A DNA stretch of 64,000 bases, taken from NCBI GenBank assembly GCA_021735655.1, contig JAIPGM010000001.1:32001-96000 (forward strand), read 5' to 3'. The notes below the pieces were generated by a model. It was given only the letters and a program-made list of their open reading frames with translations, had not been told where the DNA came from and searched no databases. Origin of the DNA: Candidatus Omnitrophota bacterium (lineage in GTDB: Bacteria > Omnitrophota > Gorgyraeia > Duberdicusellales > 4484-171). Shown here piece after piece: positions 39,301 to 60,300 of the stretch. Within the stretch, counting starts at the first letter, position 1; every line of letters starts with the position of its first letter. A program made the position numbers and the translations under genes.

Positions 39301-42300
39301 CTAGTGATATGGGCATGAAGCCTAGCCGTGTTTTAGCAGTTGAAGCTGGAGTTGATCAAGAGCCGTCAGATAGCCAGACTAATGATAGCCCGTTTGTTCC
39401 TTCTAATCGCATACCTATGATACCGGGCTCTTCTTCACCAGTTGGCTTACCTAATCCTGTTCAGACTCCGCTTGGCCCAAAAGGACTTTCGCCTTTATCT
39501 ATTATTAGAAGGACATCAACTTTTATTACAAATTTAAGGGGTTATCTGGGTTTATCACCGGCTATAGCTGCTGAAGTAGGCGCTGTGCCGAGTGACAGTA
39601 GAAGACAAATAGATGCTTTAACAGCTAAGATTGACGATGAGAGTGATATAAGCTTTGGAAGATCAGCGAATTCGCCCGGCAAGACGGTGGTCCATGCCGT
39701 AATTGCCTTTGTACGGCGATGGATCAATTTTACAGAGGGCAAAATAGCAGTTGGATTTACAAATTTTGGTCATAAATTTGACCAATTTGAAAAAAGAATC
39801 AGCTCTTTATTAGGAAAAATAGGCAGAAATGCCACTTCTGAAAGCGAAAGAGGTGTATCTGGAAGCGCTAGGAGTGTATCTAGAAACGGAAGCCAGGCCG
39901 GAGTAGCTTTAGACAACGGAAAGGATTTAGAAGTCAAAGCTAACCCTGAAGATGGCCGCAGACCGTTAAGAAGAGCTGAGAGTAAGCTTATAGCAGGAGT
40001 AGATAGCATACCTAATAGTAGGGATGCTGAAGAAACTCAAGCTGAAGAGATTGGCTTGGGTGGTAATGGCAGTGGTTCACAAAATGGTGGTCAAGGAACT
40101 TTAGGCGGTTCGTCTATAGAGATCGAACTACCTGTAATTTTAGATTTACGACGTCTTCATGAATCCTTCAGACCAGTAGTAGTTGGCCATAATGCCTCAA
40201 AGGCTCAGGCTCCGCCTGCAAATTCAAGAAAACAAGCAAGTTTAATTTTCTATACCCACCCAATAACTGTACTTGCTTTAGGTTTTATCTTTTTAGGCTT
40301 AAAAATTCCTCAACTTTTACCAATATCCATATTAATAGCTTTAGGTTTATTAGCAATATTGCCGCTTTCTCGGATTCTACCAAACGTGGCCGGTGGGTCC
40401 TTGAGAGCGGCTTTTGATTTAAATCAATGGACCCATCCTACTGTCGAAGTTGCCTCTCCATCAACCTTCCTGGCAAGTGGGTCCCGTAATAATAGTTCCA
40501 GTAGCTCAATCCACACCGATAAGGTTGCCTCTCCAACTTCTAAATTGGTTGTTGGGCTTTCTGGAACTAGTCTTAATAGAGGGGTAAGTAGTAATAGTAG
40601 CAGTAAAACAGAACAAGGGGGTGCAAGATGGTCAGTAACATCAGATCGCTCAGGTTTCAACACTTGGTTGTGGCAACCGATGGAACGATTTTTGCATCAG
40701 CTAGAGACAGCTTTGACCGCATTGAGAACTACATCGTCAGCCGTTTTGGAGATGTTAAGCGCCAGGTTAACACGCGTTTTGAACCGGTTAGATCGGATGA
40801 GGCAGGATGGATTAAGAACCTTATCGGAGTTCCTCAGACGATTCCGATCTATCGGGCAAAGAACATTAGCGTTAGCTAGCGCTGAGAGAGGGTCCGTGGC
40901 AGGACAATTTTCTAAGGGGGTCCGTGGTAGACCACTCGATAATGGCCGAGCTAAAAGATTAGCATCTCGAGCTTTGTCAATAATTACTGCTTTAGCTGTT
41001 TTAGGTTCAGCTAATGTTGTTCAGGCAGCTGAAGCAGGTCAGGCAAGTGATAGCGAAGTAAATGTGGGGTTAGTTTTAGCAGTTGTTTTTGCGGTAGCAG
41101 CAGTTTTAGCAGGAATCAGTTTTAGAATTTATGCCGGACAGAGGATCAAAGATATTGAATCTAAAACTGGAATCCAAGATAGCGCAAGAATTACTAGAAT
41201 CAGAGCAATAATTGAAGAGTTAAAACAAGAAGCTCTCAGGTTAGCTCAAGTCGCTCGAGAAAATGCGATGATAAAGGTTCTAATAGCACCTCAGGGTGAC
41301 CCATATAGAAGACTTAGTGCTTCTGAAATAGAAAAATTAAGAGCTAACCAGAAACCAGATGTAGAGTTGAGATTGTGGGATGTAACTGTGAGCGGAACCG
41401 GAACCGTAAGAATAATTTATGGTTTTAGCGAGGATAGAGTTGATTTCATAGTCATTGCTACCGATGGCGTTGTTCGAAGACAAAGTTTACCACGCGATTA
41501 TGTAGTTGATTCTATTGTAAGCGATAATGTAATTGTCGATTTATATCGTGGGAACCTCAATACTCAGCGAATCATAGAACATAGCATATATCAACGCTTA
41601 ACATCAATTATTGGTAGCTACAACGCAGAATTAGAAGCTGCCCTTGAAGAGGCTGAAGCTAATTCAAAGCAAGCTAAAGAACTATTAGACAGTAACCAAA
41701 GACTATCAGCTCGTGCCATTCGTGCTAGAGCTCGTCAAGCTGCTAGCTTAGCCGGAGCAGCCATTGATAATGCTACAACCTTAATTGAAATCGCCATCTC
41801 ATTGAATGTAGCTAGATTAAGAGCTCGAGCTAAAGTCTTAGAGAGAGAAGCTCAGGCTACTTTAAGACAAGCTGAAAATAAAATACAGAGACCACTTGAT
41901 AATGGTCGAGTGAAAAATGAACCATTAATAGGTTTTAGTCCTAATGGTTTTCATGAAAGTAAACTATTTACAATAATAACGCTAGGTTTGCTTTTATTAG
42001 CCGTAGCAGCAACAGTGACCTATCCGATTTACGCGTTAATGTATTTATCAATACCGCTCGGTGGAACTATCATTCTTTATGCATTGCTCGCTTCTGCGGC
42101 AGTTTTCTTTTCTATTAATTTTATTAACCTTCTTAATAGGATTGAATATTATCTTTTAATCAGTCGAGCACCACAAGCTGAACAAAGTCTAATTAAGGCA
42201 AGGAACTATGTAGAATTTCAGGATGCAGTCTATGCAATAGCTAGAGAGGCTGGAATTAGCATTCCTCATATAGATAGTATAGGCCAAGCTGAGGTTATTA

Positions 42301-45300
42301 TTGATAAAGTTACTGCGTCGCTTGAAGCTAGGGATTTAGATAAAGAAAGAGTTCAGGGAATAAGAACAGCTTTAGAGATGTTATTTTTAGGCGATGGTTT
42401 TGCTTTCGATCTTTTCGCTGCAGCCGTCTATATGATATCTTATCGAGACGAAAATAGTAGGTATCCAGCTTGGGTAAGCGGGTATCAAGAGAATGTTGGA
42501 AGAGTATACTATTCCAATCATCGTAAAACTCGTTCTCATTTGGGAAGTTTCTATCCTTGGTTGAGCATTCTACCTCATGAAGCCATGCATGCATTTTTAG
42601 CTAGAGCTAATTTAATTGATGGCGGAGCGATCGGTGAGGAGATCGCTACCAAAGCTGCTCGTATGAGCGAAAACGTAATAATTAGAGAGGTAGTTTCACC
42701 GTCAACCGCTTGGGAATCTTACCTGAGAAATCATTGGGGAGAAGTTCAAGATGGCTATTCTCATGATGGACAAGAGGTAGAGGTATTAAATATCAGTTCA
42801 ATGGCCCTACGAGGAATTGCTTTAATTCGTTTTATTAGAAATTTACTTAGCTTGAGGCTATTTCAATTGAGAGAGCTAGCATCTTTAGCAAGAGTTATAT
42901 TATTAGGTACACCGAATACAACTCTTGGTTTAGCATTTGCGCTTGATAATGGAAAGAAACCTACTCGAGTATGGAAAAGAATGCCTAGTTTGCAGACGGT
43001 TTATGAAACAAGAGGCAACAGAATTGACCGTTTTTTCCGAGCCATAATGTTAGCTGAGACTTTTGAACAAGAGGAAAAGGCTGTTAGACTAGCTAAGAAA
43101 ACCCTTAACTCAGATGATTATCTCAAATTAATGAAAAGAATTATGGCTTCAGTTGAGGTTGTCGCTGATGATGATCAGACTGATAGTAGAGCAACTCCGC
43201 TCGACAATGGCCGTTCAAGAAGGGTAATACCTAGAACCTTATCAGTAATTGTTACCTTAGTTGTTTTAGGTTCAACTAAAACAGCCTTTGCTTCAGGAGC
43301 AGTCGCTGCCGGCTCAGCAACAGTGCCTTTTTGGGGTGTAGTTGCTATGATTGTTATGGGGCTAGCTTTTGCATATATGTTTGGTTTTGTAGTTTATAGT
43401 ATGATTCGTAGTGCCAATATTGGCGGCCGAGATGAAATTAATGAGTTAAGGGATCGGGTTAGAGAGTTAGGTGGAAGCAAAGCTTTAAGAGAAGCCGGAA
43501 CCCCTGAAGAACTTATTGGAAATCTAAACAGTAAAGGCCAGGTTAGTGAAAACGAAATAGAAGGAGAGCTTGATGTAGTAGAAGCTCAAATTAGGAACAT
43601 TGAAGAAAGTAATAGTTCAAGTTGGTCCCAAGATCAGTTAGTTAGCTTAGAGGGCTATAGAGATGAATTAAGAAGAGAACTACTTGAAGCACAAGAACGA
43701 TTAAGAGTTTTAGAAGAAGAAATTGCTGGAGATATTCGTGCTTTTGAAAGAGCTCATGAATTAAATGTACCTTATGCAGCAGATGGTGATTTAGAAGAAG
43801 CTCCTCAGCCAAAAACTGTAGTTGGTAGAACACTCAGATTAGCTGGTCAAATTGCTAAGGTAGCCGTGGTAGCTACATTTGGCATAATGGTTATTGCATC
43901 TCCGGCTACCAGTTTTGCAGGATCTACCTTTGGTCAGTCGGCAGATGGTTTGGCTATGGACCATAATTCAGATATGGATGATCAGGATATAGACATGGAT
44001 CATTCAATGGGAGCTGTTTTACCGAACACAGAAACATTAACAACTGATGAAGTAGTTTTTGATCCTTCTTCAGTTATTGATTCTTTGTCAGATCAAGCTG
44101 GGGTTGATATAGCCGACACAGCACATTTTAATAGAGAGCTTAGTGGAGCTAAAGATAAGGTTGTTGTGTTAGATTTTTGGGCTACTTGGTGTGGACCTTG
44201 TAGAGACGTGGCTCCACTTTTAGAAGAAATTGCTGAGTCTGATGATAATATTAGGTTATTGAAAATTGACATTGATGACAACCCTGAAATTTTTAATAAA
44301 TTTAAGGTAGTGGATAAGGTAACTGGCAAAGAATTAGTTCCTCAGATACACGTTTTGGTCCATAATCCTAAAAATGGAAATTGGGAACGAAGAGAAGCTT
44401 TGGTAGGTAAAAAGAGTAAAAATCAGATAGAGGCTAGCCTCAGGCCATACTTAGCTGGTTTGGCTAAAGCTGAAACAGAAAGCGATAAGCCGGCCAAGGA
44501 AGCTTCTGAGGGCGAAGCAAGTAGTGGTCATTTTTCAGTTCCTTCAGGGGAAGCGGATTCTAAAGATTTGGCCGAAAGAAGGATTGATGAGATAGAGAAA
44601 AAACTTGTAGCTGAAAAAGAATTAACTGAAAAGAAAAATAAGGCTGATCAAGCTTTTAGCAGCGGTGATTACAGAGAGGCTGCTGAGCTTTATGAGGAAG
44701 TTTTAAATTCGGATTTAGCTAAGGGAGCTTTAGAAGCAATCGCAAAAACAAAGTTGGCTGTTGCTAAGCAGAAAATTGAAGTAGGCGATTCCGATCAGAA
44801 TATTAAAACCACTGCTGTTGGAGATGATAAGGTAGCTCCTGAAAATGAGAGCTTACAGCAAGTTATAGACCAAGGTTTAAAACAAACATCCTCAGCGACT
44901 ATTAACGAAGCGTTAGTTAAGTTAAGAACATATAAGATTGAAGAAGGTAGCTTGTCTGATGAATCTTATAGAGCACTTAAGGCTGAACAAGAAAAAGCTA
45001 TAAGTTTGTTAGTTCAGAGAGTAAAAGCTGTTACTTTTGCTGAGCTCAAAATGCAAAGAGCAATTGAAGCTTCAAATTACAATAAAGCCATGAATGAAAT
45101 CGGTAATGTTTATGTAGAAACATCTACTGATGGTTTAACTAGAGCAATTACCGATGCTATTAATATTCAAGCTCAACACTTAGAGAGTGTATTGACGGCT
45201 ATCCACGTTGCAGACAGGACAGACAAGATTGATTTTGCCTTGAAAGTACTTAAAGAAAGTAAAGGTAAGAATTTACTCCCAGAGGAATTAGAAACAAAAC

Positions 45301-48300
45301 TTCAACAAAAAGTAGATAGAGCTATTGGCGAGCTCACAGCAAGAAAAGCCACAGTTGGTCAAGAGACTGATTCAATAAGAGCGCCACCAACTGATAAACC
45401 AGCTACTGAAGAAGCAGAAGCGTCCACAGATTATTCAAAGGTCGGTATTGAGCAATTGACAGAATTGGTAGATGCTAAGATTAAATCTCAACTTTCTCCG
45501 GAAGAGAAAAAAGTTTATGAGGCAAACAAAAACAAGTTAGATTATTTAAAGAAAAATCATCCGGATCTTTTTAAGAAACTTGTTGTTATTGCCGAAGACG
45601 ATATAAAGGCTTGGTTCGAAGCTAACCAAAAACCAATTGTTCAAGCTCAACAAACAGAAATACATAGAGCCGAAAATGTTCTTAAGCAATTCTTAACAAG
45701 ATTTGGCATAGAGTTTAATCAGCCGCGCTATGTAATGGTTTCGGAAAAATTACTTGATGGTCGCTTGGGCGCAGTTTATATTTTATCTCCGGATACAGTT
45801 ATTCTATCTGATAAATTTGAAGTTAAGCAGAAGGTTAGACCGCAAGGAAGGTCTCAGGGACGAAGCCTAGTCGCCCTTGAACCAGCTGGTTCAAATATCG
45901 AAGCTGCTAATCCTAATGAAAATTCTTTAGCTATCGTAGTTATTCATGAGAATCTTCATTTAGTTAAAAATTCTGGTTTAGGCAGCGATCAGATTAACGA
46001 AGGATTTATCCAACATACAACTGATATATTAGCAAAGCAAAATAATTTTAAAGTATCTCACGATCTATATGAACCGCAAAAGGCAGTTATTTATGCCTTA
46101 GAGGCAGAAATAAGTAAAGTTGCCGGAGTAAGCTTAGCTCAAGCTTACGATATGGTAGCCAAAGGATACTTATTAGGAGATACCAGTTTTATTTCAGCAA
46201 ATATTGGAGAAGGCTCCTGGGAAGAAATTGTTAGTATTTCTAATGAATATAGAGATAAAATGGCTTTTGATAATAATCCGTTGCTTTGGGATAAATATGT
46301 ACCTAGAGTAGCTAAAAAATTAGGGGTTAATGACGAAAGCTTAAAAGATCAGCCTAGAGGTTTGAGAGAGAGAGCTAAGCAGTCAGTGGTTGAGTTAGCC
46401 GTTGTTGTTGGAAAAGTTCAAGAGTCTGACAGCGTAGAGCCCGAAGTATCAGACCAAGAGTTACCTAAAGAAGAGGTCAAGAAGGCTGATGGTGATCAAT
46501 CTGTAGATGCTCAGGTTTATTCTTCAGCTCGAGGATTGAATTTAAAGGATAAACAAGAGGGCGAGCAGTTGCAGCAAGCATTCGCAAAAGCAGTTGTTGG
46601 CAATAATGTACCTGAAGAAGCGTTTGTTGTTACTGGCGATACAGATAAGAATTTTTCTGTTAAAGGCAAATTAAGTAATGAAGATGTTGTTAGTTATAGC
46701 ACTAAGAAGATATCTGAGCGCCAAGAGCAGGGATCTCTTACTGCTGGCAGTTTAATAAAGGTAAGAGAGGTTGGTGGAGATAAGAGTTTTCTCTGGCAGA
46801 CACATTTGGGTGATGTTTATGAATTTAAGGCTGACGGGACAGTAAGTAAACTTATTGATGCACGTGATCAAACGGCCTCTAAAATTAAGGTAAATCCAGC
46901 TGAAGAAGGATTGCTCGATACAATAGGCAGGCATGCTTATGAACAGATGCAGAGAGGAATTACGAAGGGATCTATTTTTAACTCTCAAGAGGAACAAATA
47001 GGTTTTTGGCAGAGAAAGGATAATAAAACTATAGCGGTTATTTATGCAGCTGCTGGCGAAAGAAAAGGTTTCGATGTAAGTTTTACTGAAGAAGTTCGTT
47101 CGGTTGAAGAGCAAAAAGCCAAGAAACTTGCTGATGACCAAGCTGCTGAAAAAGCTGCTGAAGTTAAGAAAGCCGCTGACGCTGAAAAACTTGCTGCTGA
47201 AAAAGCTGCTGAAGCCAAGAAAGTAGCTGATGCTGAAAAACTTGCTGCTGAAAAAGCTGCTGAAGCCAAGAAAGTAGCTGATGCTGAAAAAGCTGCTGAA
47301 GCCAAGAAAGTAGCTGATGCTGAAAAAGCTGCTGAAGCCAAGAAAGTAGCTGATGCTGAAAAACTTGCTGCTGAAAAAGCTGCTGAAGCCAAGAAAGTAG
47401 CTGATGCTGAAAAAGCTGCTGAAGCCAAGAAAGTCGCTGATGCTGAAAAAGCTGCCGAAGCCAAGAAAGTAGCTGATGCTGAAAAACTTGCTGCTGAAAA
47501 AGCTGCTGAAGCCAAGAAAGTAGCTGATGCTGAGAAAGCTGCTGAAGCTAAGAAAGTAGCTGATGCTGAAAAACTTGCTGCTGAAAAAGCTGCTGAAGCC
47601 AAGAAAGTAGCTGATGCTGAAAAAGCTGCTGCTGACAAAAAGATTGCTGATGAAGCTGCTGCTAAGAAATTAGCTGATGAGGCTGCCGCTAAACCAAAAA
47701 CCCAAAATGATGGAGCTAGGGGTATTCGCGCTCCGCCAGCTGCGGAACCAAAGGTTGAAGATCAGCCACTAGCTAAAGCAGAAGAAGCAGTTAGCCAAGC
47801 AATGGAGAAATTGGTTGATGCTGCTAATGCTTCAAATGATGCTGCTAATGCTTATTCCGAAGCTACCAGCAAAGAAGCTGAAGATAAACTTAATAAACTA
47901 GCTGGAGAGTTTGCTCAGTTAGTTTTAGCTAGGGATAATCAAGATGATCAGGTTGTTGACAACGATGGTCAGGTAAAGGCTAAGGAAGCCGAAGTAAGCC
48001 AGAAACAGAAATCAATAGCCGAGCAAGAGGAAAGATTAGAAAAAGCTCTTACTCCTCCAGAAATAAGTGAAGATTGGGAACAGGCTGCCAAGGAGAGGTT
48101 TGGTAAATATAGCCATAATTCTAGGGGTAAATATAATAAAAATAGATTTCATAGCCAGACTCGCACAGTTCCATCAGTAGCTTATGATCAACCAGAAGAA
48201 GATTTTCGTAAAGGAATTCATGAGGTTGTCGGTGAAGGCAAAGAAGCCGCTGCTTATGTTGATACTTCAGTAGTTCATCGTGGTAGTGAAGCGCGTGGTG

Positions 48301-51300
48301 CTGGTACAGTAGTTTTGATCTTTGCTGTAGATAAAAATGATTTTAATAAAAGAGTTTTAATATATGTTGATGCCAGCCGTAGACGCGGTATCGATTATAA
48401 TGATCAATATTTTGACTTAGAGGGTAATCAAGTTGAGCCTTTTGGAACAAGTGATAGCTTAATCATTAGGGTTGGCCAAGTTAGTTCCGACAAAGATGGA
48501 GAAATAAGCTTAGATTGGGGTGAACCTTACACTAGTTCTCGTGGCGAAATTAATGATATTTTTGGAAAATATAAACCTGAAGGTGAATTCGTGGCTGGAT
48601 CAGAAGCTCAAGCTAGCGAGCGATCAGCCAAAGATTTACAGGAAGAGTTAGAAAAAGCCGAAGGCGAATTAGAAGCCCTCAAGAAAGCTAAGGAGGAGTT
48701 AACTGGAAAGACAGCTGAAACTGATGAAGAATTAAAAACTAAACAAGCTGAGATTGAAAGATTAAAAGAAAACTTAAAACAAAGACAAGCCAAAGCTGCT
48801 GAACTAAAAAGCGAAACCGCTAAAGCAGTAGATTTGTCTATAGAGGCGCAAGATATAGTTAAAAAAGTTATAGAGGCCAAAGATGCTCCGTTAGAGGATA
48901 GGATTAAAGATCTTGATCAAGCTATTGACTTGGTTGATCAGGTAGCTGAAGTTGCTAGAAGTCTTTCAACCGAAGCGGATAATGAAGTAAAAATAGCCGA
49001 AGGCTTGGTTGATTCAGCTAAGAAAATTGAAGCCTATGCTATTAGTTTAAGAGAAGATGCTGAGAGGAAACTGGCTGAGGTAAAAGCCGCTGAAGAGGAA
49101 GCCCAAAGACAAGCCGAAGAAGCTAAAAAGGCTCAAGAAAAAGCTGAAGCAGAATTAAAGGTCAAAGAAGCTAAAGCCAAACAAGCTTTAGCTGAAGAAG
49201 ATAAGGCTAAGGAAGAATTAACCGAAGCTCAAGGTAAAACTGAGAAAGTTACCACTACCCAGACCGTAAGGGTAAATATTAATAAGCCGCGTTGTTGTTT
49301 AGTAAGATTTTTTATTGATCGTCCAAGATTTGTTCGTGGTTGGGTGCAAGATGGACATTCACGTCGTTGCGGCAGACAAACTTACCGTCAAGGTTTCTAC
49401 CCTGCAGAAATTTACGTAGAAACACTAGTAGCCGTAGATACAACTGATTTAGAGAAAGCCGCAGCTGATAAAGCTGAAGCAAGAAAGACAAGTGATGTGG
49501 AAGTTGAGACTGCTAAAGGAGAGGTTGAAGTTGCTTCAACGGCTACCCAAGAAGCTGAAGCTAATTATAATCAAGCAAAAGCGCAAAGGGAACAAGCTGA
49601 AAAATATTTAGAAAGAGCTAAAGAACTTGAACAGGCAGCTACCCAATGGCGCAAACAAGTAGAAAAAATAGCTCAAAGAGCTCAAGAGTTAGTTGACCGG
49701 GCTCAAGAATTGGAACAAAGAGCAAAAGAAGCAAAAGAGGCCATTGAGGCGTACAAAAAGGCTCTTTCTGAAGAAGAAGGGAGCGGTCAGCCTAAAGGGC
49801 CTGAAGTAGGATCCTTTTATGAGAATCATCCATTTTGGTTTTTCTTCTTACTTTTAACCCCCGGATATCTTTTCGGAATATGGGCTGCTATACGTCGTCG
49901 AAAGGGACTTTCAATCATTCCTGGACGAGGAAAAAAAGTTGTTATAGCTCTTATTGCTGTTGGATTAAGCTTAGCTTTGGCTGATAAGGCTTCTGCTGCA
50001 GACGTCAGCTTAGCAACTATGGCTGTAGAGAGCTACATGACTTTACAGAATACTACTGGTGGAGTTACTGGTTTTGGAACTGGTTATGCATTAGGAGAAG
50101 CTACAGTAGCTTTATTCTATTGGTTGTTTGGTAATAAAGATAAGACTGAACAATCCCAACCAATCCAACCTCAAGCAGATCAAGCCCCTTCTAGTCGCAA
50201 GAAAGGAAAGAAAAAAGTTGGGCCAGAAGTAACTGAAGAGTCTGATTCTGTTGTACATGAAGATGGTGATAGTGAGGACGGTGAAATGGGTTCTGGAATT
50301 GCCACTTCAAAAGGCCGGAAAGATAGTTCGCAGTCAGCACTTTCAGATATAAAAGTAAAAGCTGAATTAAGTCCTTTAGGCAGACAGGTACGTATTATTA
50401 TTGCTAGTAAGCAGGGTACCAAGAAAGCTCTATTGGATGAGATTTTTGATTTAGCAAATCTTCCGATATTTATTGCTACTGAGGAAGGAAGTTTCTATAT
50501 TTACTATAACCCACGAACCAATCAGTTGATTATTACCGCTGAACGAAGCATTAGTAATAATCCGGCTAGTGTCGGTATGGTACCGGTGAGTTCATACGGC
50601 CAAGCAGCGGAATTAGAGACTCTTTGGGAAAGTGAAGATGGGACTGAAATGGCAGCCCTTGAGGGCGAAGTTGATGACTTCGATGATGTTACTATAAACA
50701 ATATTCGTGGCATAAACAGTTATCTTACTCATCGTAACAGTATTGTTATTATTACCAGTGCTTCTGATCCAGAAGCTTACGTGCAGGATGGCGAGGATAC
50801 AGTCAATGCTGTTATAATCCAGTCAAGTAGGCGAATTGTTCATAACTCAGTTTCCTTGATGAATGCTCTTGGTCAGATAGAAGAGGTTAATGCGTTCTTA
50901 ATTTTAGGGACATCTTCTGATTGGATTACTACAGATGAAGATGGTAGAACTTTTATCCATCGCGCAGTGAAGTTAGTAGGTCGCGATGGTAATCGTATTC
51001 GTATGGTCGTTTTGGATTTTGATCAACCACTTGAAGTTCATTATGGAGTAATTCGTTTGGGACGACCGACTAACACTAAAAATATTCAGCATACCATAAT
51101 ACCTTTATCGCGTAAGCTTGGTTATGAATGGATTGCAAAACATAAAATTGCCGCCAATTTAGTTTTAGTTGATGCACACGTCGCTGTTCCGGATAGCTTT
51201 TCGTTTGTCCAAGATGGTCATGAAGATACGCCATGGATTAAGAGCGCACGTAAGCCTTGGACTATTCGAGGTCCACCCGGTTCGGGTATCCAATGGTATG

Positions 51301-54300
51301 AAGTAGCTCCGGGGACCTATGTTATGTTTGTTCAGGGCGCAGGTCGACAAGCCCGTATCAGAGCTGCGGTTGAGAATTTCGTTGCTACTCATCGGGCCGA
51401 AGACGGAACAGCTAAACCAGTTGTTGTCAAAATCGCCGATGGCTCACAGGGTGTAGGTATAGCAATGTTCGGTGTCGAAGAATACGATAACGAGTTAGAT
51501 TTTATCGATGATGCCGTTCAAACTATCCAGGGTTTTCTTAGTGAAGGTCACAGTGTTATGCTTCAAGAACGTGAAATACCGGTTAATGTTGCGGTTAGTG
51601 GCCAGGATTCAAATTATCGTGTCTTTATATCTCGCAAAAACGGAAAGCCAGTTGTAACCAAAATTGTGGTCCGTACTGGTCCTTTTTCGAATGATCCAGT
51701 TAACATTAGTCAGGGTGCCGAAACTATAAGTTTTGAAACAGAAAGCTACGCGATGCTTGGTTTGACTAGCGATGAGCATGCTCGTAAGCGTGAAGCTATT
51801 GAGTCAGCAGCTTTAGCAATGTTTAAGGCTTTAGATGCACAGGCTGATAATGATGCTCTTTATGAAGAAACAGAACGTAGCCAACAAGATTTTGCAAGTG
51901 CCGATATAATTGTTGTTGAAATTGAAGATGCTAACGGCGTTAAGCAGTTCCATCCTAAGATTATTGAAGGCAATGGTACCAATTCAGGTGGTTTTTGGCA
52001 TCTTGATGAATACTATAACAGTAGTTATAGCAGTAAGGGTCGTCAAACAACCGAAAGGGGTTTAGCTATCAAAGAATATGCTGAAACCATAGCCGCTCGT
52101 GCCCGCGCCTATCGTCAACGCCTTGAAGGGAAAGAAGGGGCAGCATACCTTGAACATCTTATGACTACCGCTGTGCAAGATGGCAATGGTTTGGCTGTTT
52201 CTGAAGATATTGCAGTTGATGAAGCCGAATATGATGCAGCGGTTGTTCTTATCGGAGGCTATGTTGATTCTCAGGCCTTGGCTATTTTACAAGCAGCGAC
52301 TGAGAGTGATCCTGCAGTTGCTTTTGTTTGGGTTCGTTGGTCTGGTGAGCTTCGTCGTCGGAAAGGTGTATTATATGTTCAGGATGGCGTTCGCTATCGC
52401 GAGGGCAAATTAGAAGCAGTACACTATGCAGCACCTATTGCTGTAGGTATGGTGCATGCTGCTGGCACTGTCAGCAATAAACAATTACGTAGATTAGGCA
52501 TAACACCACGTACTTGGAATACACGTGTTGAATTTTATATGCATCATAAGGCAGCTACTGCTTATATTTTACGTCAAGCTGGCGTATCAATGCCGAAAAC
52601 ACTTGCTTTCTTGCCGGGTAGTAACAGAGGGCCAGCTCTATTACGCGACGACCCCGATACAGTTATTGTATCTAAGAATGATTTACGTAGAAGAAAAGCT
52701 GCTGTTCGAGTAAGGATACGTCAACGCGTAAGTGAACTTTCAGAATTCACCACTGGCGCTATTGTTAAGCCGGCTAACCGTTCACGTAGTGAAGGCGTTG
52801 AAGCAATCCCTTATACTGGAACCGAAGCAACCATCGATGCTATTACTGATATGATTATGGCTCGTTTGCTTAAAGGCGAAAGTCTTATTCTCCAGGAAAC
52901 ACAATTAGCAAGATCAATCGATGGTTTATATGGTATCGGAAAAACTAGACACTTGGTACGAGCCTTCGGTATGATTGATCCGGTAACTGGGAAACCAGTT
53001 GTTTTTGCCATCAGATTTGATCCAGGACATATGCCGATCGGCGGAGCCGATAGTATTGTAGTTAACGCTACCCGTCATACCTTGACTGCTGATAAGTACC
53101 ACGGTTATACACTTGAAGAAGTTGCTGCTATGTGGGGTATGGATCCGGAAAGCTTACGCAGCAGCATTGAGCAGTTATTCATTGATGCAGTTACTGCAGT
53201 TGCCTCAACGGTTAATCCACGTGGTGTCAGTCAGGCTTGGATTACGACCGATATGATTATCGATGAAACAACCGGAAAGCCGGTTCTCGTCGAGATGAAT
53301 GGTCGTCGTTCAGCTCAAATCTTTGGTACTGAGAAGCACAGATCAGAACTTGCTCGTTCAGGAAAGGCTCCGGCACGTAGTTATACTGCTACTTTTACTG
53401 ATGCTTTAGCTGCGAAGGCCAAGAAACACCTTAAGGTAAGTATAGAAGAGACTTCGACAGCAGCAGTTCCTTTAGACAACGGAAGTAGTCATAGAGGATT
53501 GTCTATACCGGTATTTTTAGCTGGAATTTTAACTTTGGGTTTAACAAATATTGCTTCGGCTGCCGAAAAAGGGCAAGCAACTAATTCAGATAATCCGCTA
53601 TTTGCTTTATTTTTAATAGTTGCTATACCTTTAGCTGTAGCAGCTGTTGTATTCTTATTTGCTATAGATTGGGATTATTATTTTGGTAAATTAACCAGGC
53701 AATCGCCTCCCAGCGAGAGTGAAACCTCCCCGATAGGGGATGATAGATTAGAAGTTGATGGGGCTAGTTCATCCGTGGCTGCTAGCCCTACTTCTTCTAG
53801 CCATAGGGATGAGCCTCATCGACCTCTTGACAACAACTCTGGAGAAAAACGAAGCAGATTTTCTTTAAGATCTCTTTTCGGTGGAACAGCAGATAGCTCT
53901 TCAGCTTCTAGCTCTGCTAGTAGAACATCTCGAGAAACTCGTGCACCACCAGTTTTAAGAATTGTAATAGCTTGGGCTAGCGCAGGTAACATAGCCGCAT
54001 TAAAGGCTTTAGTCGAGCGTATTAGGCAGGATTTAATTGATGGATTACCTTTTGATGTTGTAATTGAAGAAACAGTAGTCTTAACTAAATTAGATAAATA
54101 TAACCAAAGTCATTTAGGCGCAACCAGAGATTCTAGCGTTGGTCAGTATATCCTTCCTTGGCCAAATTTAAAAACTAAAGCTAACGTACCTACCTTAGTT
54201 ATTACTGATGCTGATTTGGGCGGAACATCTGAAGATGATTCTGGAAAACGATCAACAAATAATAGCCTTATGGGCAGGACCTATGCTTGGCAGAATATAG

Positions 54301-57300
54301 CACTGGCCACTACTTGGAAATTCCGCAGTTCAAACCAAGGTCTATCAGATAGAAATAATCGCAATAACATATTACATGAACTCGGCCATCTTTTTGGAAT
54401 AAATCATGAGTGTGGCTGTAAAACCTGTATTATGCATCAAGCTGACTCAACCGAAGAAGTGGCCCGGACGAAACAATTTTGTAAGTCTTGTAATAACGAA
54501 TTAACTAAAATAAATGGTGTTAAATCTAAAAAAACACCACTTGATAACGGTAAACAAACTAGACAATCGTCTCCCAGCGATAGATTAGAAGTTGATGGGG
54601 CTAGCTCATCCGTGGCTGCTAGCCCTACTTCTTCTAAACCTTTGGATAATGGAATATTCGGAGTAATGTTTAGACAAAGAGCCACAAGGATTGATGCTGA
54701 TGGCCATGGTAATTGTTCTGCTGTGACTATTTGGGCTAAGAGAGTTGAGGCTTGGGATGGTTATTTTTCAGAGGGAGAGTCTTTTTATATAGCAGGTATT
54801 GAAGATAGTAGCGATTCATTAGGAGAAAGTACAGATCCTAGGTATGTACGAACTGTAGAAAGATCGGAATCTTCAGATAGGTCTCAAAGAATAGTTAAAG
54901 TAGAAGTCGCTGAGGGTGAATTCACGATTATTGAATTAGAAGACGGATCGGTTATTGCTCATGCCCATATATTTCCAAGACAGGGAACGGCCGATACTGC
55001 TTATTGGCAGCTTATTAGAGTGTTGGATTATTTTACCGACTCCAGAAATGGTTTTGATCAAGATAGCTTAAGAATTGCTTTTGGTTGGGAAGAACGTTTA
55101 GATGGATTTGGTTACGATGCAATTACTTTTAATAGAAGGTTGTTTAGAACTTCGGATTATATGGGGGATGGTCGAGGGCCAGTTTATAGTTCAGCTATGA
55201 CTTGGGATCAACAAGTCGCCGCAGCTGGTCTAGTCGGAGTATTACCTAGTGGTACCGAGCGCATTAATGAGTTAGAGCAGTTGGCCAGAGACAAAGGCTT
55301 TGAAGTTATTTCTTCAAATACCCGTCAATATACGCCAGATCCGGCAGGTTCCGGACAGGGGATGACCGCAACAGATATTAGCGTAACATCTAGTGATTAT
55401 TGGTTGTCGCATAGGCAGGCAGAATTTAGATTTCATTTACGCTTATCAGAAGATAAAAGACCGTTAGATAATGGTAAAGAGAGTGATTTACAGATTCCTC
55501 TTGATAATGGCCCAAAAGGACAGTCTGAATTAGCGGCTAATACCTTAGGCTCTCTAATTGCCGGATTAGTCGCTGCACTTCCAGTTGTTGGGTTGGTGGC
55601 GGGCGCCTTAGCTTTAGTAGTTGTACTTCCGCCGGCAATAACAACAACGACCGCAGTAGTAGTAATCGCAGTAATTGCGGCAGCAGGAATCCTATCGCTT
55701 CCTTTTGCCTATATCTCAGTAATGTTTTTGTCACAAGGCTTAAGAATTGCCATAGCTAATGTTGTTCATGGCGGCATAAGAGGCCCTACTGCTTTAACTG
55801 AACCTATTGCTACTCCGGGCAGTAATGTTTCAAGAAAAATTCCTGAATCAATTATGCCTTTAGCTCTAAGACATTCCATTAACCAGGTTCATGAACAAGC
55901 CCATCGTGATGGAAAAGATGAGCTTGGTGCTTATTCTGCTCAAGCAAAAGATTTCTTGGCTAAAGGAATAAAAGTTTTAATTCATCTTGGATTACTAATC
56001 GGTGCTACTAAATTAGTTTGGATAACTGGTTTCGGTAGTTTATTTAATGTATTTGTTCCAGCTCTCGTGGTCTTGGTTGCTGTTTTTTACCTATGGAAAG
56101 ATTTAAATTCCTTAAGGGATAGTCAGCCAATTAAACTTTTCTATGAATCTCGGGTTTTACTGACTCAAGCTGAAAGTTTAGCCATTGGCACATTTGTTTC
56201 AGCCCGTGGTGTTCAAAGCCAAAGGGTTGGGTTTGCCGATAGAAGCTTAATTGATTCAGTCTCTCGAGTAGTTACTAATCCAGTTTTAGTAGTAGCTTTT
56301 GTTTTATTAGGAATTTCGGTACCGTTAACTGGCGGAGCAAGTTTCTTCAGTCTAGCTGTATTGCAAGGTGCTCTTTTTGGAGTCTTTGCTCCTTATTTGT
56401 TTAATGTGTTATGGAATTTTTTCTGGGATCATGCTCAGAAGGATGATTACCTGCAAAAAATAGCCGAAGGTTATAAAGCTAGAACACTTTCAACTAATAA
56501 TTTGAACGAACTAGATAGGTTAGTTAAGCTTTTTGAGGATGGTTTAGCTAAGGCAAATAATTTTGAAAGAGTTTGGTTTAGGCTAAAGAGCTTTTGGATA
56601 ATAGGATCAGTAAGACTTCCAGCCTTAACCGGACCAGCTAAATTTTTGATAGGTAGGTTACAGTTAGTTTTCTGGGGTTCAGTAATAGCTCTAGGAGTTC
56701 TTCCTTTTGTTGATCAATGGTTATTAAATATTTTTGGAGTTGGGGCTGAATTTTCTTTGCTCAACCTAATTGGTTATGATGGCGTTAAAGATGGCGCTGC
56801 CAGCTTGAGTCTTTCACATACAATCGGTGGCTTAATAAGAACTGGCATAATTGTAATGTTGCTTAAGATTTTTAGCCGTAGATTTTCTCAGCTTAGGAAT
56901 AATATTCAAAATAACCGACTAGCCAATGGTAAGGATATCAAATTAGGTTCTTTGAGCGCTGGGTACTTAATTAAGAATTTTGATAGAGTAGATAAAGATT
57001 CAATAAAGCTAGCGCTTGAGCGGGGTTTAATTAATCCTTCAGGAATTCCGGCAGCTAAGGCGCTATTACGCGAAATGCTTGGAACTGAAGGCATAAACGT
57101 TGTTAATCCTTCAGTTTCCGGGAAGTTATTCCATCAGTTCTTTTATTACCTTATTCCCGATGCAATAACTTTTCTAGTCGTTATTTCTTCGCCGATATCC
57201 GGTTTATTGTATTTTTTACATAGAAGAGTACTTAAGAATTTAAACAATGATTTCAGTGTAGCGCATCCTTATTATTCTTTATGGCTTATGCAGGGCCGCG

Positions 57301-60300
57301 AGTATTGGGTAAGTTTTGGGCATATGTGGATAATATCAGCTGAGATTGAAGCAGTTGTCGATAGCGGCGATTATCTTGCCGGACATCAAGTTTTAAAGCA
57401 TGTTGGTGGTCAAGAAATAGGTCAGATTGCTCATCTCTTAGAAGGTAAAAATGGAGCAATTTCTTGGGGTGGCCATATTTTAGGATTAGTAGAATCTTCT
57501 TTAGGCATAAGCTTGGCTCAGGTTGCCCATAATGCTTTAGGTGGTGAAACTGATGTTGTAGCTTGGCAACAAAGCAACCAACTCAAGATTCAAATTGACA
57601 CAATAGAGTCGTCTAAAGATTTTAAAAGAATACATTCTAGAGCGAATGCAGAAGTTTTGAAGAATGCTGATGCCCTAGAGCAAATGTTTTCCTTTGAGGC
57701 AGAACGGAATGAATTAGAAGAATCGGTAAGAGTCCATGCTCGCAGTCTCCTTTATCAAGCTGCTGCTAGTAAAGAAGCGCACGATAATGTGTATGATCAA
57801 GATGGAAAGCTAAAACTTGATTTAGCAGTAGAGATTGTTGCAGCTAGGGTCACCGGTAGTATTTTAGGTAGAGTATTTTCAATGGGTCAATTTGGTGGCA
57901 GCAGTTCCTTGGGTAGCGAAATAGAAGTTGTGGTTGATGGGGACGCTGATGTGGTTGGATCAGAACCAAAAGTAGTAGCTGCTCCGTTAGACAATGGAAA
58001 GCCAAGCGAAAGACCGGTTGTTGATTCAGAAAAGGTAGATTCGGTTTCACCAAACCAGGCAGAGGGTTCTACGGTTGAAGATAGTTCAGAGGCTAAGGCT
58101 TCAGATACAAGAGAGGTCAAACAGTCCAGAGCGCCACCTGAGGAATCAAAGGAAGGTCTATTAACTCGTTTAAATAGAGGAATTTTCCGCAAAGTAGCTC
58201 CGGTCTTATTAAGTTTGCATATTGCTTTTTCACCGATAACTGAGTACTCTTTAGCTAGCTATTTAGAAAATCAAAATCAAGCAGTTGCAGTTCAAGTCCA
58301 GGAAGTTGACTCATTAGGGACGGTAGTTGATTATAGCCGTAGTCGAGACGGAAGCGCACTGAATGAAGCAAGGATTAAAGCTGAAGTTGAATCAACTCCG
58401 AGTGAAGCAGTTGATTTTGAACGGATTAACCGCGGCGGTGAACTGGATAAAGCTCGAGGATTTTACCAGACCCAAGGTCTAAAGGCTGCTTCGGATAGTT
58501 TTGCCGAGTATTTCAGACAACCTGGTAAGATTAGAGTAGGTGATTATGATCGATTTACCGGATCAGTCTATAATGGCAAATTATATCTATCTGAAGATAC
58601 CTTAGATGATTCTTCAGAGTTAACTCTTACCCTAGTCCATGAAATTGGAGCTTTCGCTAAAAGAACTCATGCTCAAAATAAAGCTATGGAGTATAAGTTC
58701 TTGGTAGCTGAAGGAAAAGTTCCTGAAATTGCTTTAGAGATGGATCCGGTATCTCGAGAAGTTGTTAAACTTAAACCAGGAAATACCATAGCGATTATCG
58801 AAAAGCCTAATGGCGATTGGGTTGCTGTAGGTAAAGATGGAAAAGAAACTGTTATATTTGGAGCATCTATCCAGGTCGCCGAAGGGGCTAACCCACCTTC
58901 AGCCTATGGTGAAAATAAGCCAGAGTTACCTTATCGTAACTTACACGATACTGACAGAGTAAAAACTGAAGATGGGAAAAATCTGACTAGTGTTTTAGAT
59001 CAAATCGGATTAAACTTTCAGCACTTCTACCTGATGACTAACCCTACTGCTGAGCAGTTAAAGATACTAGAAGGGATAGTAACAAAGGCAAGAGCAAGGG
59101 GTGTTGAAACTATGGTTACCTATTGGGCTGGTCAGCATACTAAGAACATTTCTTTAGAAGCTGAAATTAAGCAGGCTTTAAATATTCCGGCCGAGAGAGA
59201 TTTGACTGAGTTTAACTTAAGGCCGGTTGAGGATTGGAATAAGCTTACTCAAGTTAAGCAAAATCAATTAAAGGCCCAATTGGGTATCGCTGCTACTGAA
59301 ACTGTAAATGAAATACAGATTCAAAATCTTTTAATGCTTGAAAGCTGGAGTCAAATACCAGCGGCTCGGCAAAAAGAGCTTAGAGCCCAGATTGGTATCA
59401 GCGAAGCGGCCAAGTTAAGTATAGACCAGATAGATACGCTTTTATTTATCAATCTTTGGCAAAGTTTGCCGGTAGCTAAGCAAGCAGAGTTTAGAGGACG
59501 CTTAGGCTTTGAGGCTACCGAGAAACTCACCGATATCATGCAGATTGAATCAGGTCTATTTACTCTTTATAATCCTACCGCTGAAAATAAAAAGTATATT
59601 GTCGATCAGGCAAAGATGGTTGCCGAATGGGCCAATCAAGTTGGCGTTTTTGTAAAGATTGCTAATGAAATTAACTACTATGATAAGAATGGTCCGGTTC
59701 TTGATCTTGCAAAGATAAATCCAAACCAAATGGTCAATTTGTTTCCTCATCAGTTATATAAATTTTTAAACGAGGAAATAGCAGTATTGTTTAATAAGGA
59801 TAAAGTTTTCTTAAGCTTAGGAAGGTTAGATGTTCCTGGTTTTGAAGATGAGCCATTCTTAAAAGATAATCTTTCAAATTTCAAAGGGTTGGCCTTAAAC
59901 CTTTATCCTAACTGGGATCCTCAATTTGGCGGCTCACGTGAAACCGATCAATTATTTAGTTCGATAAACTATAGCCGTGGAATCATTGGTAGCATGCAAG
60001 CAGCAGCAAGTTTAAGAGTTCCAGTAATAATTTCAGAGTGGGGCGAGTCTTCATATTTAGCCGGCATTGCTAAAGCTATAGGAATTGGTGAAGTTGGTCA
60101 GGCTCTTTTTGCCCGAACTTTTTATCAGGGAATTCTACCATTTGTTGCCGGAAATAGTGATCCTAAATATGCTGATCGAACTCAATTTCCGAAAGTTATA
60201 GTTGGTGCGATCGTCTATAGTGGTGCTTACGAACAAGGTTGGCAGGCCACCTTAGATCCAGCTGAGCCAGGGTTGTCATTTACCGAAGTTGTTGACGCTT

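Follow-up and report, generated by a model that had tools for sequence, protein, structure and literature searches.

Giant ORF with a recurrent PLDNG motif

The window analysed here (64,000 nucleotides of Candidatus Omnitrophota contig JAIPGM010000001.1, read on the forward strand) carries on its + strand one giant open reading frame (ORF), in which the pentapeptide PLDNG recurs and which encloses an archaemetzincin (peptidase family M54) module. The frame is open without a stop from 21363 to 63998, contains at least 14,212 codons (at least 42.6 kb within the window) and continues past the window end. Taken from its first candidate start, ATG 21375, the ORF spans 21375–63998, whereas the other candidate, ATG 21444, yields a textbook-like signal peptide, the N-terminus reading MRKVAFLVLFCFLWQDMASA followed by YG. 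The same gene is called on Logan contig SRR12088349_1123, which is identical to the window across 8974–30800 (21.8 kb).

Ten copies of PLDN[GN] are present in the window, together with two of ALDNG, and all of them lie in this single frame (21363–63998). An earlier examination of the letters and predicted translations (hereafter the sequence-only reading) had placed all copies in one frame and had listed the ten sites correctly, at 40932, 41892, 43197, 53469, 53823 (PLDNN), 54537, 54639, 55461, 55497 and 57984. The ALDNG that it reported near 39908 was also recovered, at 39906–39920 (+ strand, aa 6182), and is uncertain as a functional copy; the second ALDNG, absent from its list, lies at 42939–42953 (+ strand, aa 7193) in a hydrophobic upstream context and may sit inside a folded region.

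The number of copies is far above the expectation from composition, a comparison that the sequence-only reading had called for: ten were observed against a mean of 0.019 in 2000 shuffles of the protein (maximum of 2), which excludes a chance or compositional origin of the array, and PLDN/LDNG is the top over-represented 4-mer of the ORF outside its tandem A/E/K repeat. One-mismatch variants of PLDNG are nearly absent from the ORF, and the motif is thus sharply defined. Its consensus in the window is [R/K/T]-P-L-D-N-G-[K/R], although the R, K or T that had been described before every copy is found in seven of the ten and is missing from the other three. The 15-nucleotide codings of PLDNG vary synonymously (such as CCA CTC GAT AAT GGC and CCT TTA GAC AAC GGA) and the DNA around them is unrelated, and PLDNG is therefore under selection and conserved as a peptide motif, with no repeat of the DNA.

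Several other origins were considered and rejected. A DNA-level repeat is excluded by the synonymous codon variation together with the frame being open throughout, and a hidden stop/start in another frame (CTTGATAATGG holds TGA TAA and ATG) is excluded on the same grounds. Translation starting internally behind the motif was discarded, as no copy is followed by a Met or a start context. An N-glycosylation sequon, N-G-S, would suit two of the relatives described below (L082 and P0009), but neither the N-G-K/R of the window nor the lineages with DNGG.

Archaemetzincin module bracketed by the motif

A complete archaemetzincin (53940–54512, + strand, aa 10860–11050) lies between the PLDNN at aa 10821 (53823–53837, + strand) and the PLDNG at aa 11059 (54537–54551, + strand), the latter beginning 16 residues past the last Cys of the CxxC. 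The module starts with RAPP and contains HELGHLFGINH-E-CGCKTCIM-x15-CKSC. It closely matches the archaemetzincin signature HEXXHXXGXXHCX4CXMX17CXXC given in PMC3427221, differing by an additional residue behind the third His and by a spacer of 15 rather than 17 residues. Pfam PF07998 scored 31 bits (cut-off 24.4), with an alignment confined to the last 50 positions of the profile (aa ~10999–11048), and the NCBIfam archmetzin profile matched at 8.5e-13 with a score of 48.6, under its cut-off of 145; since this score is below the subfamily cut-off, the module is judged to be a divergent archaemetzincin. PDB archaemetzincins match it by sequence. An AlphaFold2 model built from an alignment of nine modules has a confident core at residues 50–241, with a predicted local distance difference test (pLDDT) score of 70–92, and a Foldseek search with this model led to 2x7m (E 3.8e-11, TM-score 0.75). 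The catalytic HExxHxxGxxH, the Met-turn and the Cys4 signature are intact in the window and in all of the embedded relatives. One characterized archaemetzincin, AMZ-tk, shows Zn-dependent endoproteolysis, degrades casein and cleaves itself (PMC4681839).

Both motifs around the module have pLDDT <50 and fall outside the archaemetzincin core, so that the motif is found in low-pLDDT linkers and not in the core of a fold, which settles in its favour one of the refuting conditions set by the sequence-only reading. The PLDNN upstream is preceded by a Ser-rich linker, DRLEVDGASSSVAASPTSS, which ends in PLDN and is duplicated (53685–53834 and 54549–54650, 62% identity): one copy ends in the PLDNN ahead of the metzincin, and the other lies between the PLDNG copies at aa 11059 and aa 11093, the second of which (54639–54653, + strand) ends the linker and has no helix after it. 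As to the soluble domains that the sequence-only reading had proposed between motif copies, the thioredoxin and the metzincin were confirmed, whereas the ATP-grasp domain stayed below threshold (16.5 against a cut-off of 31.4 bits).

Lineage-specific versions of the motif in relatives

Relatives were collected with an exhaustive HMMER search using aa 10380–11579, which gave 28 proteins, and with a metagenome scan. The long relatives are partial proteins, nearly all from metagenome-assembled genomes (MAGs) labelled Candidatus Omnitrophota, and so are pieces of other giant genes. In addition to the module in the window, seven further embedded M54 modules are bracketed by the motif, on both sides in P0002, P0003, P0007, P0009 and L082 and on the single available flank in P0005 and P0012. 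The bracketing follows a constant layout, in which the upstream motif is followed by a linker of 18–46 aa and then by R[ASD]PP, and the downstream motif begins ~16–24 residues after the CxxC in each of the seven embedded modules in which that flank is preserved. P0005, a standalone homologue, stops exactly at the position of the C-terminal motif of the embedded modules.

Each lineage has its own version. The M54 is bracketed by GLDNGG and PLDNGG in P0002 (the DNGG type twice), by SLDNGG and SSDNGG in P0003, with a third SLDNGG 900 residues on, and by SVDNGG and CSDNGG in P0007; P0012 has FDNGG after the M54 and SLDNGG later (two copies). In P0009 the brackets are CTNGS and QTNGR, with PRTNGS elsewhere and seven copies of TNG[SR] overall. 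In L082, from the metagenome scan, the M54 belongs to an open frame of at least 6,926 aa, which takes up the entire 20.8-kb locus and contains ten copies of GSLDNG[SAG] and one of SRDNGS, against an expectation of 0.006 for SLDNG. GSVDNGG is counted seven times over L146/P0007, five of the copies being in the 3,360 further ORF residues gained by walking on from P0007. As in the window, the codons of the motif vary synonymously, and in an unbiased scan the motif was the top over-represented 4-mer in each motif-bearing protein. Asn-Gly is the only dipeptide common to all of the lineage versions (PLDNG, SLDNGS, VDNGG and PRTNGS), and within each protein the copies share one flavour (RPLDNGK in the window; GSLDNGS, GSVDNGG and PRTNGS elsewhere). 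One flavour per protein, differing between lineages, would be expected if a single co-evolving recogniser in the same chain reads all of the sites.

The motif was found to track M54. A recurrent xNG motif is present in seven of the eight long fragments with M54 and in none of the eight without it (Fisher p = 0.0014). At L147, where two giant genes are adjacent, the M54-bearing gene has seven copies of TNG[SR]; its neighbour has no motif in the 3,317 aa examined and no M54 among its recorded Pfam matches. The 63 other loci of the metagenome scan are standalone archaemetzincin ORFs, none with the motif, and 61 standalone archaemetzincins contain no LDNG, no [DT]NG[GS] and no R[ASD]PP. In the word-indexed protein database, profile A2 retrieved standalone archaemetzincins only and profile A3 gave no match.

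Several side observations were made on the relatives. Besides that of the archaemetzincin, the giant ORF contains HExxH segments at aa 7072, 8195 and 11510. The last of these, HEQAHRDGKDELGAY (HExxHxxGxxE[L/I]GAY, 55890–55934, aa 11510–11524), follows a transmembrane (TM) pair in the multi-TM region at aa ~11390–11950, is conserved in P0001, P0006, P0008, P0011 and P0015, and may represent a second, membrane-associated zincin-like domain of no assigned family. These five proteins have no M54 and no motif. P0004, an Omnitrophota fragment of 2,922 aa homologous to aa 11194–11348 of the window ORF, likewise has neither M54 nor xNG motif, and carries a linker-like motif of its own, [A/V]SSPA(D), six times against 0.06 expected; other lineages may thus use other junction motifs, possibly with other proteases. 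At L146, the gene call behind P0007 extends to 3419, and the following ORF, of 3,801 aa and in another frame, already begins at 3338, within what appears to be a single PGI domain. This is probably one giant ORF divided by a frameshift, either a sequencing error or programmed.

Motif copies lie at junctions between protein-sized units

The relatives contain complete Pfam enzyme domains, and the motif copies lie 6–25 aa from the ends of these. In L082, HATPase_c ends at 3337 and is followed by a motif at 3344, the M54, a motif at 3592, a hexokinase (3604–4032) and a motif at 4044; a PGM ends ahead of the motif at 1909, and LpxC is enclosed by the copies at 4431 and 5197. The order in P0007 is PGM, motif (333), M54, motif (572) and PGI. 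P0012 shows M54, motif, transaldolase plus transketolase (transketolase_C ending at 1252), motif (1267) and HAD, with HAD motif I ~11 residues past the motif, the expected starting point of a free HAD protein. P0009 has a motif at 2227, GDPD (2242–2488), a motif at 2507, transaldolase and a further motif, and in L146 a ribulose-phosphate epimerase is followed by a motif, as is RmlD (1078–1341, motif at 1351).

The units of the relatives are therefore complete hexokinase, PGM, PGI, transaldolase plus transketolase, HAD, GDPD, RmlD and histidine kinase proteins, mostly of ~250–900 aa between motifs, and those of the window measure 86–829 aa, plus one of 3,424 aa. Three features of a polyprotein with an embedded, self-flanked protease were found here: a single ORF joins several units, each the size of a protein and known as an independent protein elsewhere; a short motif stands at junctions in unstructured linkers, though not at every domain junction; and a protease that appears competent by signature, fold and bracketing lies in the ORF, flanked by the motif.

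Hydrophobic helices and hairpins near the motif

According to the sequence-only reading, each copy has a basic cluster and then a hydrophobic helix behind it, as in an internal signal peptide with AxA-like sites and a second TM helix. This description fits only part of the array. A basic stretch and a helix follow five of the ten copies (aa 6524, 6844, 7279, 10703 and 11379), the TM helices starting 10–24 residues after the motif in a hydropathy scan, but not those at aa 10821, 11059, 11093, 11367 and 12208, and the signal-peptide-like unit with AxA and second helix is clear at three copies (aa 6524, 7279 and 10703) and not elsewhere. These three hairpin units are paralogues, 31–48% identical, consisting of PLDNG, a basic n-region, a helix, AxA, a short loop and a second helix. 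The first (40932–41129, + strand, aa 6524) has the n-region RAKRLASR, the helix ALSIITALAVLGSANVVQA followed by AE, an acidic loop and the second helix. The unit at aa 7279 (43197–43397, + strand) has RSRRVIPR, a helix, AFA followed by SG and a second helix, and is 48% identical to the first; that at aa 10703 (53469–53672, + strand) has SSHR, a helix, ASA followed by AE and a second helix, with 41% identity to the first. The charges of the first unit are +4/−1 in the N-flank, 0/−3 in the loop and +3/−2 in the C-flank, a pattern that predicts flanks inside and loop outside.

The other copies differ in what follows them. PLDNG at aa 6844 (41892–42125, + strand) is followed ~24 aa later by a cluster of two to three TM helices; the tandem pair at aa 11367 and 11379 (55461–55511, + strand) has a TM pair ~20 aa after its second copy, which opens a conserved multi-TM domain; and PLDNG at aa 12208 (57984–57998, + strand) leads into an acidic, disordered-looking stretch, with RAPP 48 residues downstream of its P. 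An internal BLAST of the giant ORF returned only the hairpin units, the two copies of the Ser-rich linker and some repeats towards the C-terminus.

TM hairpins or signal-like segments are also found without the motif, at aa 6294–6336, aa 7500 (before the thioredoxin) and aa 9492–9544. A hand-made scan for Sec-type (signal peptidase I) signal peptides, with a basic n-region, an h-region of 10–15 hydrophobic residues and AxA at −3/−1, detected this pattern after PLDNG at aa 6524 and 7279 and in weaker form at 10703; it also picked out aa 7500 and 9526, which have no PLDNG. These PLDNG-less segments span 43860–43952 (aa ~7500–7530, GRTLR...VAVVATFGIMVIASPATSFA followed by G) and 49923–49997 (aa ~9521–9545, GRGKKVVIALIAVGLSLALADKASA followed by A). 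The segment at 43860–43952 lies ahead of the thioredoxin domain (44115–44435, + strand, CGPC at aa 7610), and the two together resemble a periplasmic thiol-disulfide oxidoreductase embedded in the chain. In the relatives a hydrophobic helix follows only 2 of 28 motif copies, and because of this the TM hairpin is regarded as a feature of some units of the window and not of the motif.

RAPP, a second motif at module borders

The tetrapeptide RAPP, with which the M54 module begins, occurs four times in the giant ORF of the window against 0.09 expected, all on the + strand, at 45378–45389 (aa 8006), 47727–47738 (aa 8789), 53940–53951 (aa 10860, the first residues of the metzincin) and 58128–58139 (aa 12256). 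Over 16 Omnitrophota giant-protein fragments (49,264 residues) there are 15 copies against 0.36 expected, a 41-fold excess, and nine permuted or neighbouring tetrapeptides have no occurrence in the same 49,264 residues. The M54 core starts with RAPP in the window, P0002, P0003 and P0007, with RSPP in L082 and with RDPP in P0009. RGPP is found at aa 9969 of the giant ORF. RAPP sits at module borders, and at the protease modules it stands 18–46 residues after the xNG motif, a distance close to the stretch of nascent chain that the ribosomal tunnel conceals.

Ribosome-arrest peptides have RAPP as their core (PMC10951233), RAPP and RGPP are among the most depleted bacterial tetrapeptides, and RSPP and RDPP are partly arrest-competent (PMC12992588). 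The arrest peptides ApdA, ApdP and those like SecM share the RAPP core with the copies described here, and RSPP and RDPP take the same position in the relatives (PMC10951233 and PMC12992588). Known arrest peptides differ in that they are small proteins, secreted or in the membrane, which carry the motif close to their C-terminal end and are encoded upstream of a regulated gene, whereas here RAPP is internal, at module boundaries of giant ORFs, so that the known gene context does not apply. The enrichment hints that translation of the giant ORFs may also be punctuated. A bolder proposal, which we regard as speculative and rather improbable, is a two-part junction signal made of an xLDNG-type cleavage site and a downstream RAPP pause (RAPP alone at other borders), in what would be true bacterial polyproteins. 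The ribosome would pause at RAPP with the fresh linker at the mouth of the exit tunnel or just beyond it, and the pause could give the upstream unit time to fold, to insert or to be released by cutting ahead of the synthesis of the next one. If this is true, one ORF of 40–400 kb would in effect yield a succession of individual proteins, much as an operon does but with no stop and start codons in between.

Interpretation of the motif as probable processing junctions

The analysis shows the enrichment, the peptide-level selection, the location at junctions and in linkers, the bracketing of M54, the lineage versions with an invariant Asn-Gly and the co-occurrence with M54 in one polypeptide. On balance, we lean towards the motif copies being polyprotein processing junctions and the embedded M54 the processing enzyme. 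The sequence-only reading had offered proteolytic processing as one of two readings, and the comparisons favour it through the linkers, the M54 bracketing, the lineage forms and the occurrence of the motif with M54 only, while cleavage of the sites, the role of M54 as the enzyme and the choice of scissile bond are what we infer. The middle part of the window ORF (aa ~6,180–12,210) would then be polyprotein-like, with protein-sized units joined by short, disordered, motif-carrying linkers. The embedded M54 would recognise the motif and cut at or beside it, at its own flanks first and then in trans, and so free the units as separate proteins. Five of the freed units would start with a basic stretch and a hydrophobic helix, three of them with an AxA site, and such new N-termini would act as ordinary Sec-type signal peptides or anchors by which the pieces could be targeted to the membrane independently. 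These starts of five products would explain why the sequence-only reading had noticed helices after the motif.

Several points weigh against the processing reading. Some domain junctions have no motif, namely transaldolase–transketolase in P0012 and PRK–ribulose-phosphate epimerase in L146, and the M54-bearing P0013 has just a degenerate KDSG at the expected site. The association with M54 counts eight M54-bearing giant fragments only, which were collected with M54-containing queries, and most fragments are partial, so that 'no M54' can mean that it lies outside the fragment. The HExxH segments at aa 7072, 8195 and 11510 make another protease possible. A crude hydropathy scan gives neither a self-consistent topology for the intact chain nor the side of the membrane on which the M54 of the window and all its sites lie. 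Metzincins usually favour a hydrophobic residue at P1′, where Gly is unusual, and the scissile bond is thus unlikely to be that between N and G. Human archaemetzincins have been described as aminopeptidases (PMC4681839). Finally, cleavage of any copy is itself inferred.

The motif could instead be an uncleaved linker, either a docking short linear motif (for a chaperone, a scaffold or a non-catalytic M54) or a turn or hinge, in which case the giant protein stays whole. We consider this unlikely, even though the junction position, the disorder and the lineage flavour would fit recognition without cutting equally well, the NCBIfam family 'non-proteolytic archaemetzincin-like' also matches weakly, and published topology analyses take Omnitrophota giant proteins as single chains. 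The catalytic signature of the M54 is intact in the window and in all embedded relatives, and the M54 is flanked on both sides at fixed offsets, with a standalone homologue ending at that point, which is the classic layout of a self-excising protease; moreover, a pure hinge needs no invariant Asn-Gly with protein-specific flanks. That the sites are cut by another protease, with the M54 as mere cargo, is less likely still. Candidates for it are the HExxHxxGxxE(L/I)GAY domain at aa ~11510, the other zincin-like segments or an enzyme encoded elsewhere, and three further HExxH segments are indeed present in the ORF, that at aa 11510 being conserved in five relatives, while C39 and S8 peptidases have been proposed for other giant proteins by West-Roberts et al. 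However, the relatives that have the aa-11510 domain and lack M54 have no motif, the motif tracking M54 instead, and the search of the window's ORF turned up neither a C39 nor an S8 domain.

The invariance of Asn-Gly as the sole dipeptide common to the lineage versions raises the further alternative of spontaneous chemistry, in which a succinimide leads to deamidation to isoAsp or to slow backbone cleavage and the linker serves as a timer or cleaves itself, with no protease. Asn-Gly in flexible peptides is the fastest-deamidating sequence, but deamidation dominates over chain cleavage at Asn-Gly, and this chemistry leaves unexplained the Leu/Val-Asp or Arg-Thr conserved ahead of N-G, the flanks particular to each protein, the M54-bracketing PLDNN copy and the strict association with M54; we hold it to be very unlikely. 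Least credible of all is the other reading put forward from the sequence alone, that motif, basic stretch and hairpin form a topogenic signal by which successive domains are re-inserted into the membrane. TM helices do follow five copies at 10–24 aa, three of them in paralogous modules of PLDNG and a signal-peptide-like hairpin, and one GSVDNGG of L146 precedes an anchor-like helix. With half of the copies in the window (five of ten) and 26 of 28 in the relatives lacking a following helix, with hairpins and signal-like helices occurring without the motif, and with the motif of the relatives separating soluble cytosolic enzymes, that reading is not supported and is largely refuted.

Genomic setting and further features of the giant ORF

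A Tad/type II secretion system (T2SS)-like cluster lies directly upstream of the giant ORF, with a T2SS/type IV pilus-type ATPase (T2SSE, 32–661), a TadE/G-like gene (8822–10324) and two T2SS-F genes (T2SSF, 11165–12895) on its 5′ side. The nearest homologues of the ATPase fragment, at 78–96% identity, are from MAGs labelled Candidatus Omnitrophota; the Omnitrophota loci collected around this ATPase stop short of the giant genes, which lie >20 kb farther downstream. An ORF of >20 kb, multiple TM helices (~20 or more hydrophobic segments in a crude hydropathy scan) and T2SS/Tad neighbours were all found here, and by these characters the gene is taken to be one of the giant genes known from Omnitrophota, which lie beside secretion or pilus genes and encode many TM helices.

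A Pfam scan of the giant ORF gave the thioredoxin (aa ~7585–7690), the C-terminal half of Peptidase_M54, the sub-threshold ATP-grasp match and almost nothing else, and profile scans found no C39 or S8 peptidase domain in it. The first ~6,290 residues after the N-terminal signal peptide are devoid of Pfam domains and rise to one weak peak of hydrophobicity only, at aa 4073. Cys is strongly depleted, with 14 in 14,212 residues (0.1%), of which two belong to the CGPC of the thioredoxin and five to the zinc-site/zinc-ribbon segment of the metzincin (aa 11017–11043). An A/E/K-rich tandem repeat, AEKAAEAKKVADAEK, recurs ~10 times at ~47160–47670 (aa ~8600–8770), its periods being 12 and 17 residues, and ends ~20 residues ahead of the RAPP at aa 8789; more diverged repeats lie at aa 13557–13900 and aa 14005–14202. 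Searches with other parts of the ORF were negative: aa 6480–7720 had no match in the word-indexed protein database, aa 7720–10719 had no relative in genome and metagenome contigs, viral contig searches gave no match, and PDB sequence searches with the units at aa 11098–11366 and 10280–10702 returned nothing useful.

Comparison with known systems

Short motifs beside a hydrophobic helix and a basic cluster are known from sorting signals and class III prepilin signals. Sortase LPXTG and exosortase PEP-CTERM signals have the order motif, helix and basic residues, and prepilins have a basic stretch and Gly before the helix with Glu at +5. All three were ruled out, because here the order is motif, basic stretch and helix, and the copies are internal, repeated and half of them without a helix. 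A 2A-like StopGo element (D(V/I)ExNPG/P) was ruled out as well, since no NPGP stands behind any copy and the flanks are unrelated. The statement of the sequence-only reading that the motif belongs to no described family stands as far as the searched literature goes: a full-text search found no paper with PLDNG in the sense of a linker motif, and none that connects archaemetzincins with polyproteins or with the giant proteins of Omnitrophota.

Viral polyproteins with an embedded protease, such as picornavirus 3Cpro, potyvirus NIa and flavivirus NS3, resemble the arrangement described here in having many units per ORF, a junction motif, a self-flanked protease and a site flavour that co-varies with lineage. 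The viral proteases are chymotrypsin-like or cysteine enzymes, whereas the candidate here is a metzincin (M54) and the cargo includes housekeeping enzymes and membrane modules; the host is a cellular bacterium, the ORF is 10–50 times longer, and its cleavage is putative. Among bacteria, MARTX and large clostridial toxins autoprocess their linkers by a cysteine protease domain, and Porphyromonas has gingipain polyproteins. These are likewise large multi-module proteins with their own protease and linker sites, but they are secreted toxins or adhesins of 2,000–5,000 aa with cysteine proteases and a simple P1 (Leu, Arg or Lys), in contrast with the candidate zinc metzincin, the motif of five to seven residues and the metabolic and membrane modules of the Omnitrophota proteins.

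Known archaemetzincins (MEROPS M54; PDB 2x7m and 3zvs; AMZ-tk) share the fold and the HEXXHXXGXXH...CX4CXM...CXXC signature with the modules of the window and its relatives. They are standalone proteins of 160–300 aa whose physiological substrates are unknown, whereas the present modules are embedded in giant ORFs, with R[ASD]PP at the N-edge and xNG motifs on the flanks. If our reading is correct, it would provide the first physiological substrates for the M54 family.

The closest comparison is with the giant genes described from Omnitrophota (10.1101/2023.11.21.568195; PMC10066038; 10.64898/2026.06.07.730766), which agree with the window in phylum, an ORF of >20 kb, many TM helices, few domains and T2SS/Tad neighbours, and whose multi-enzyme architecture matches that of the relatives. 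Cleavage of giant proteins by C39 or S8 peptidases has been suspected, with the cleavage points unknown (West-Roberts et al., 10.1101/2023.11.21.568195), and M54 or a linker motif is mentioned neither there nor in the 2026 complete-genome survey (10.64898/2026.06.07.730766) nor by Seymour et al. (PMC10066038). Whether such proteins, of up to >100,000 residues, exist as single chains or are cut into pieces is the question on which the present comparison bears, and it offers candidates that can be tested: the lineage-specific xLDNG/xTNG motifs as the sites and the embedded archaemetzincin as the enzyme. If cutting does occur, Omnitrophota would have cellular polyproteins that bundle housekeeping enzymes with membrane modules, the giant ORFs could be divided computationally into their actual products before structures and functions are predicted, and topology predictions of giant proteins would have to be read differently. 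The giant Omnitrophota genes, their multi-enzyme content and the suspicion of cleavage are already known, as is the principle of a self-flanked protease within a polyprotein, and what is new is its proposed setting, together with the enzyme family and the motif.

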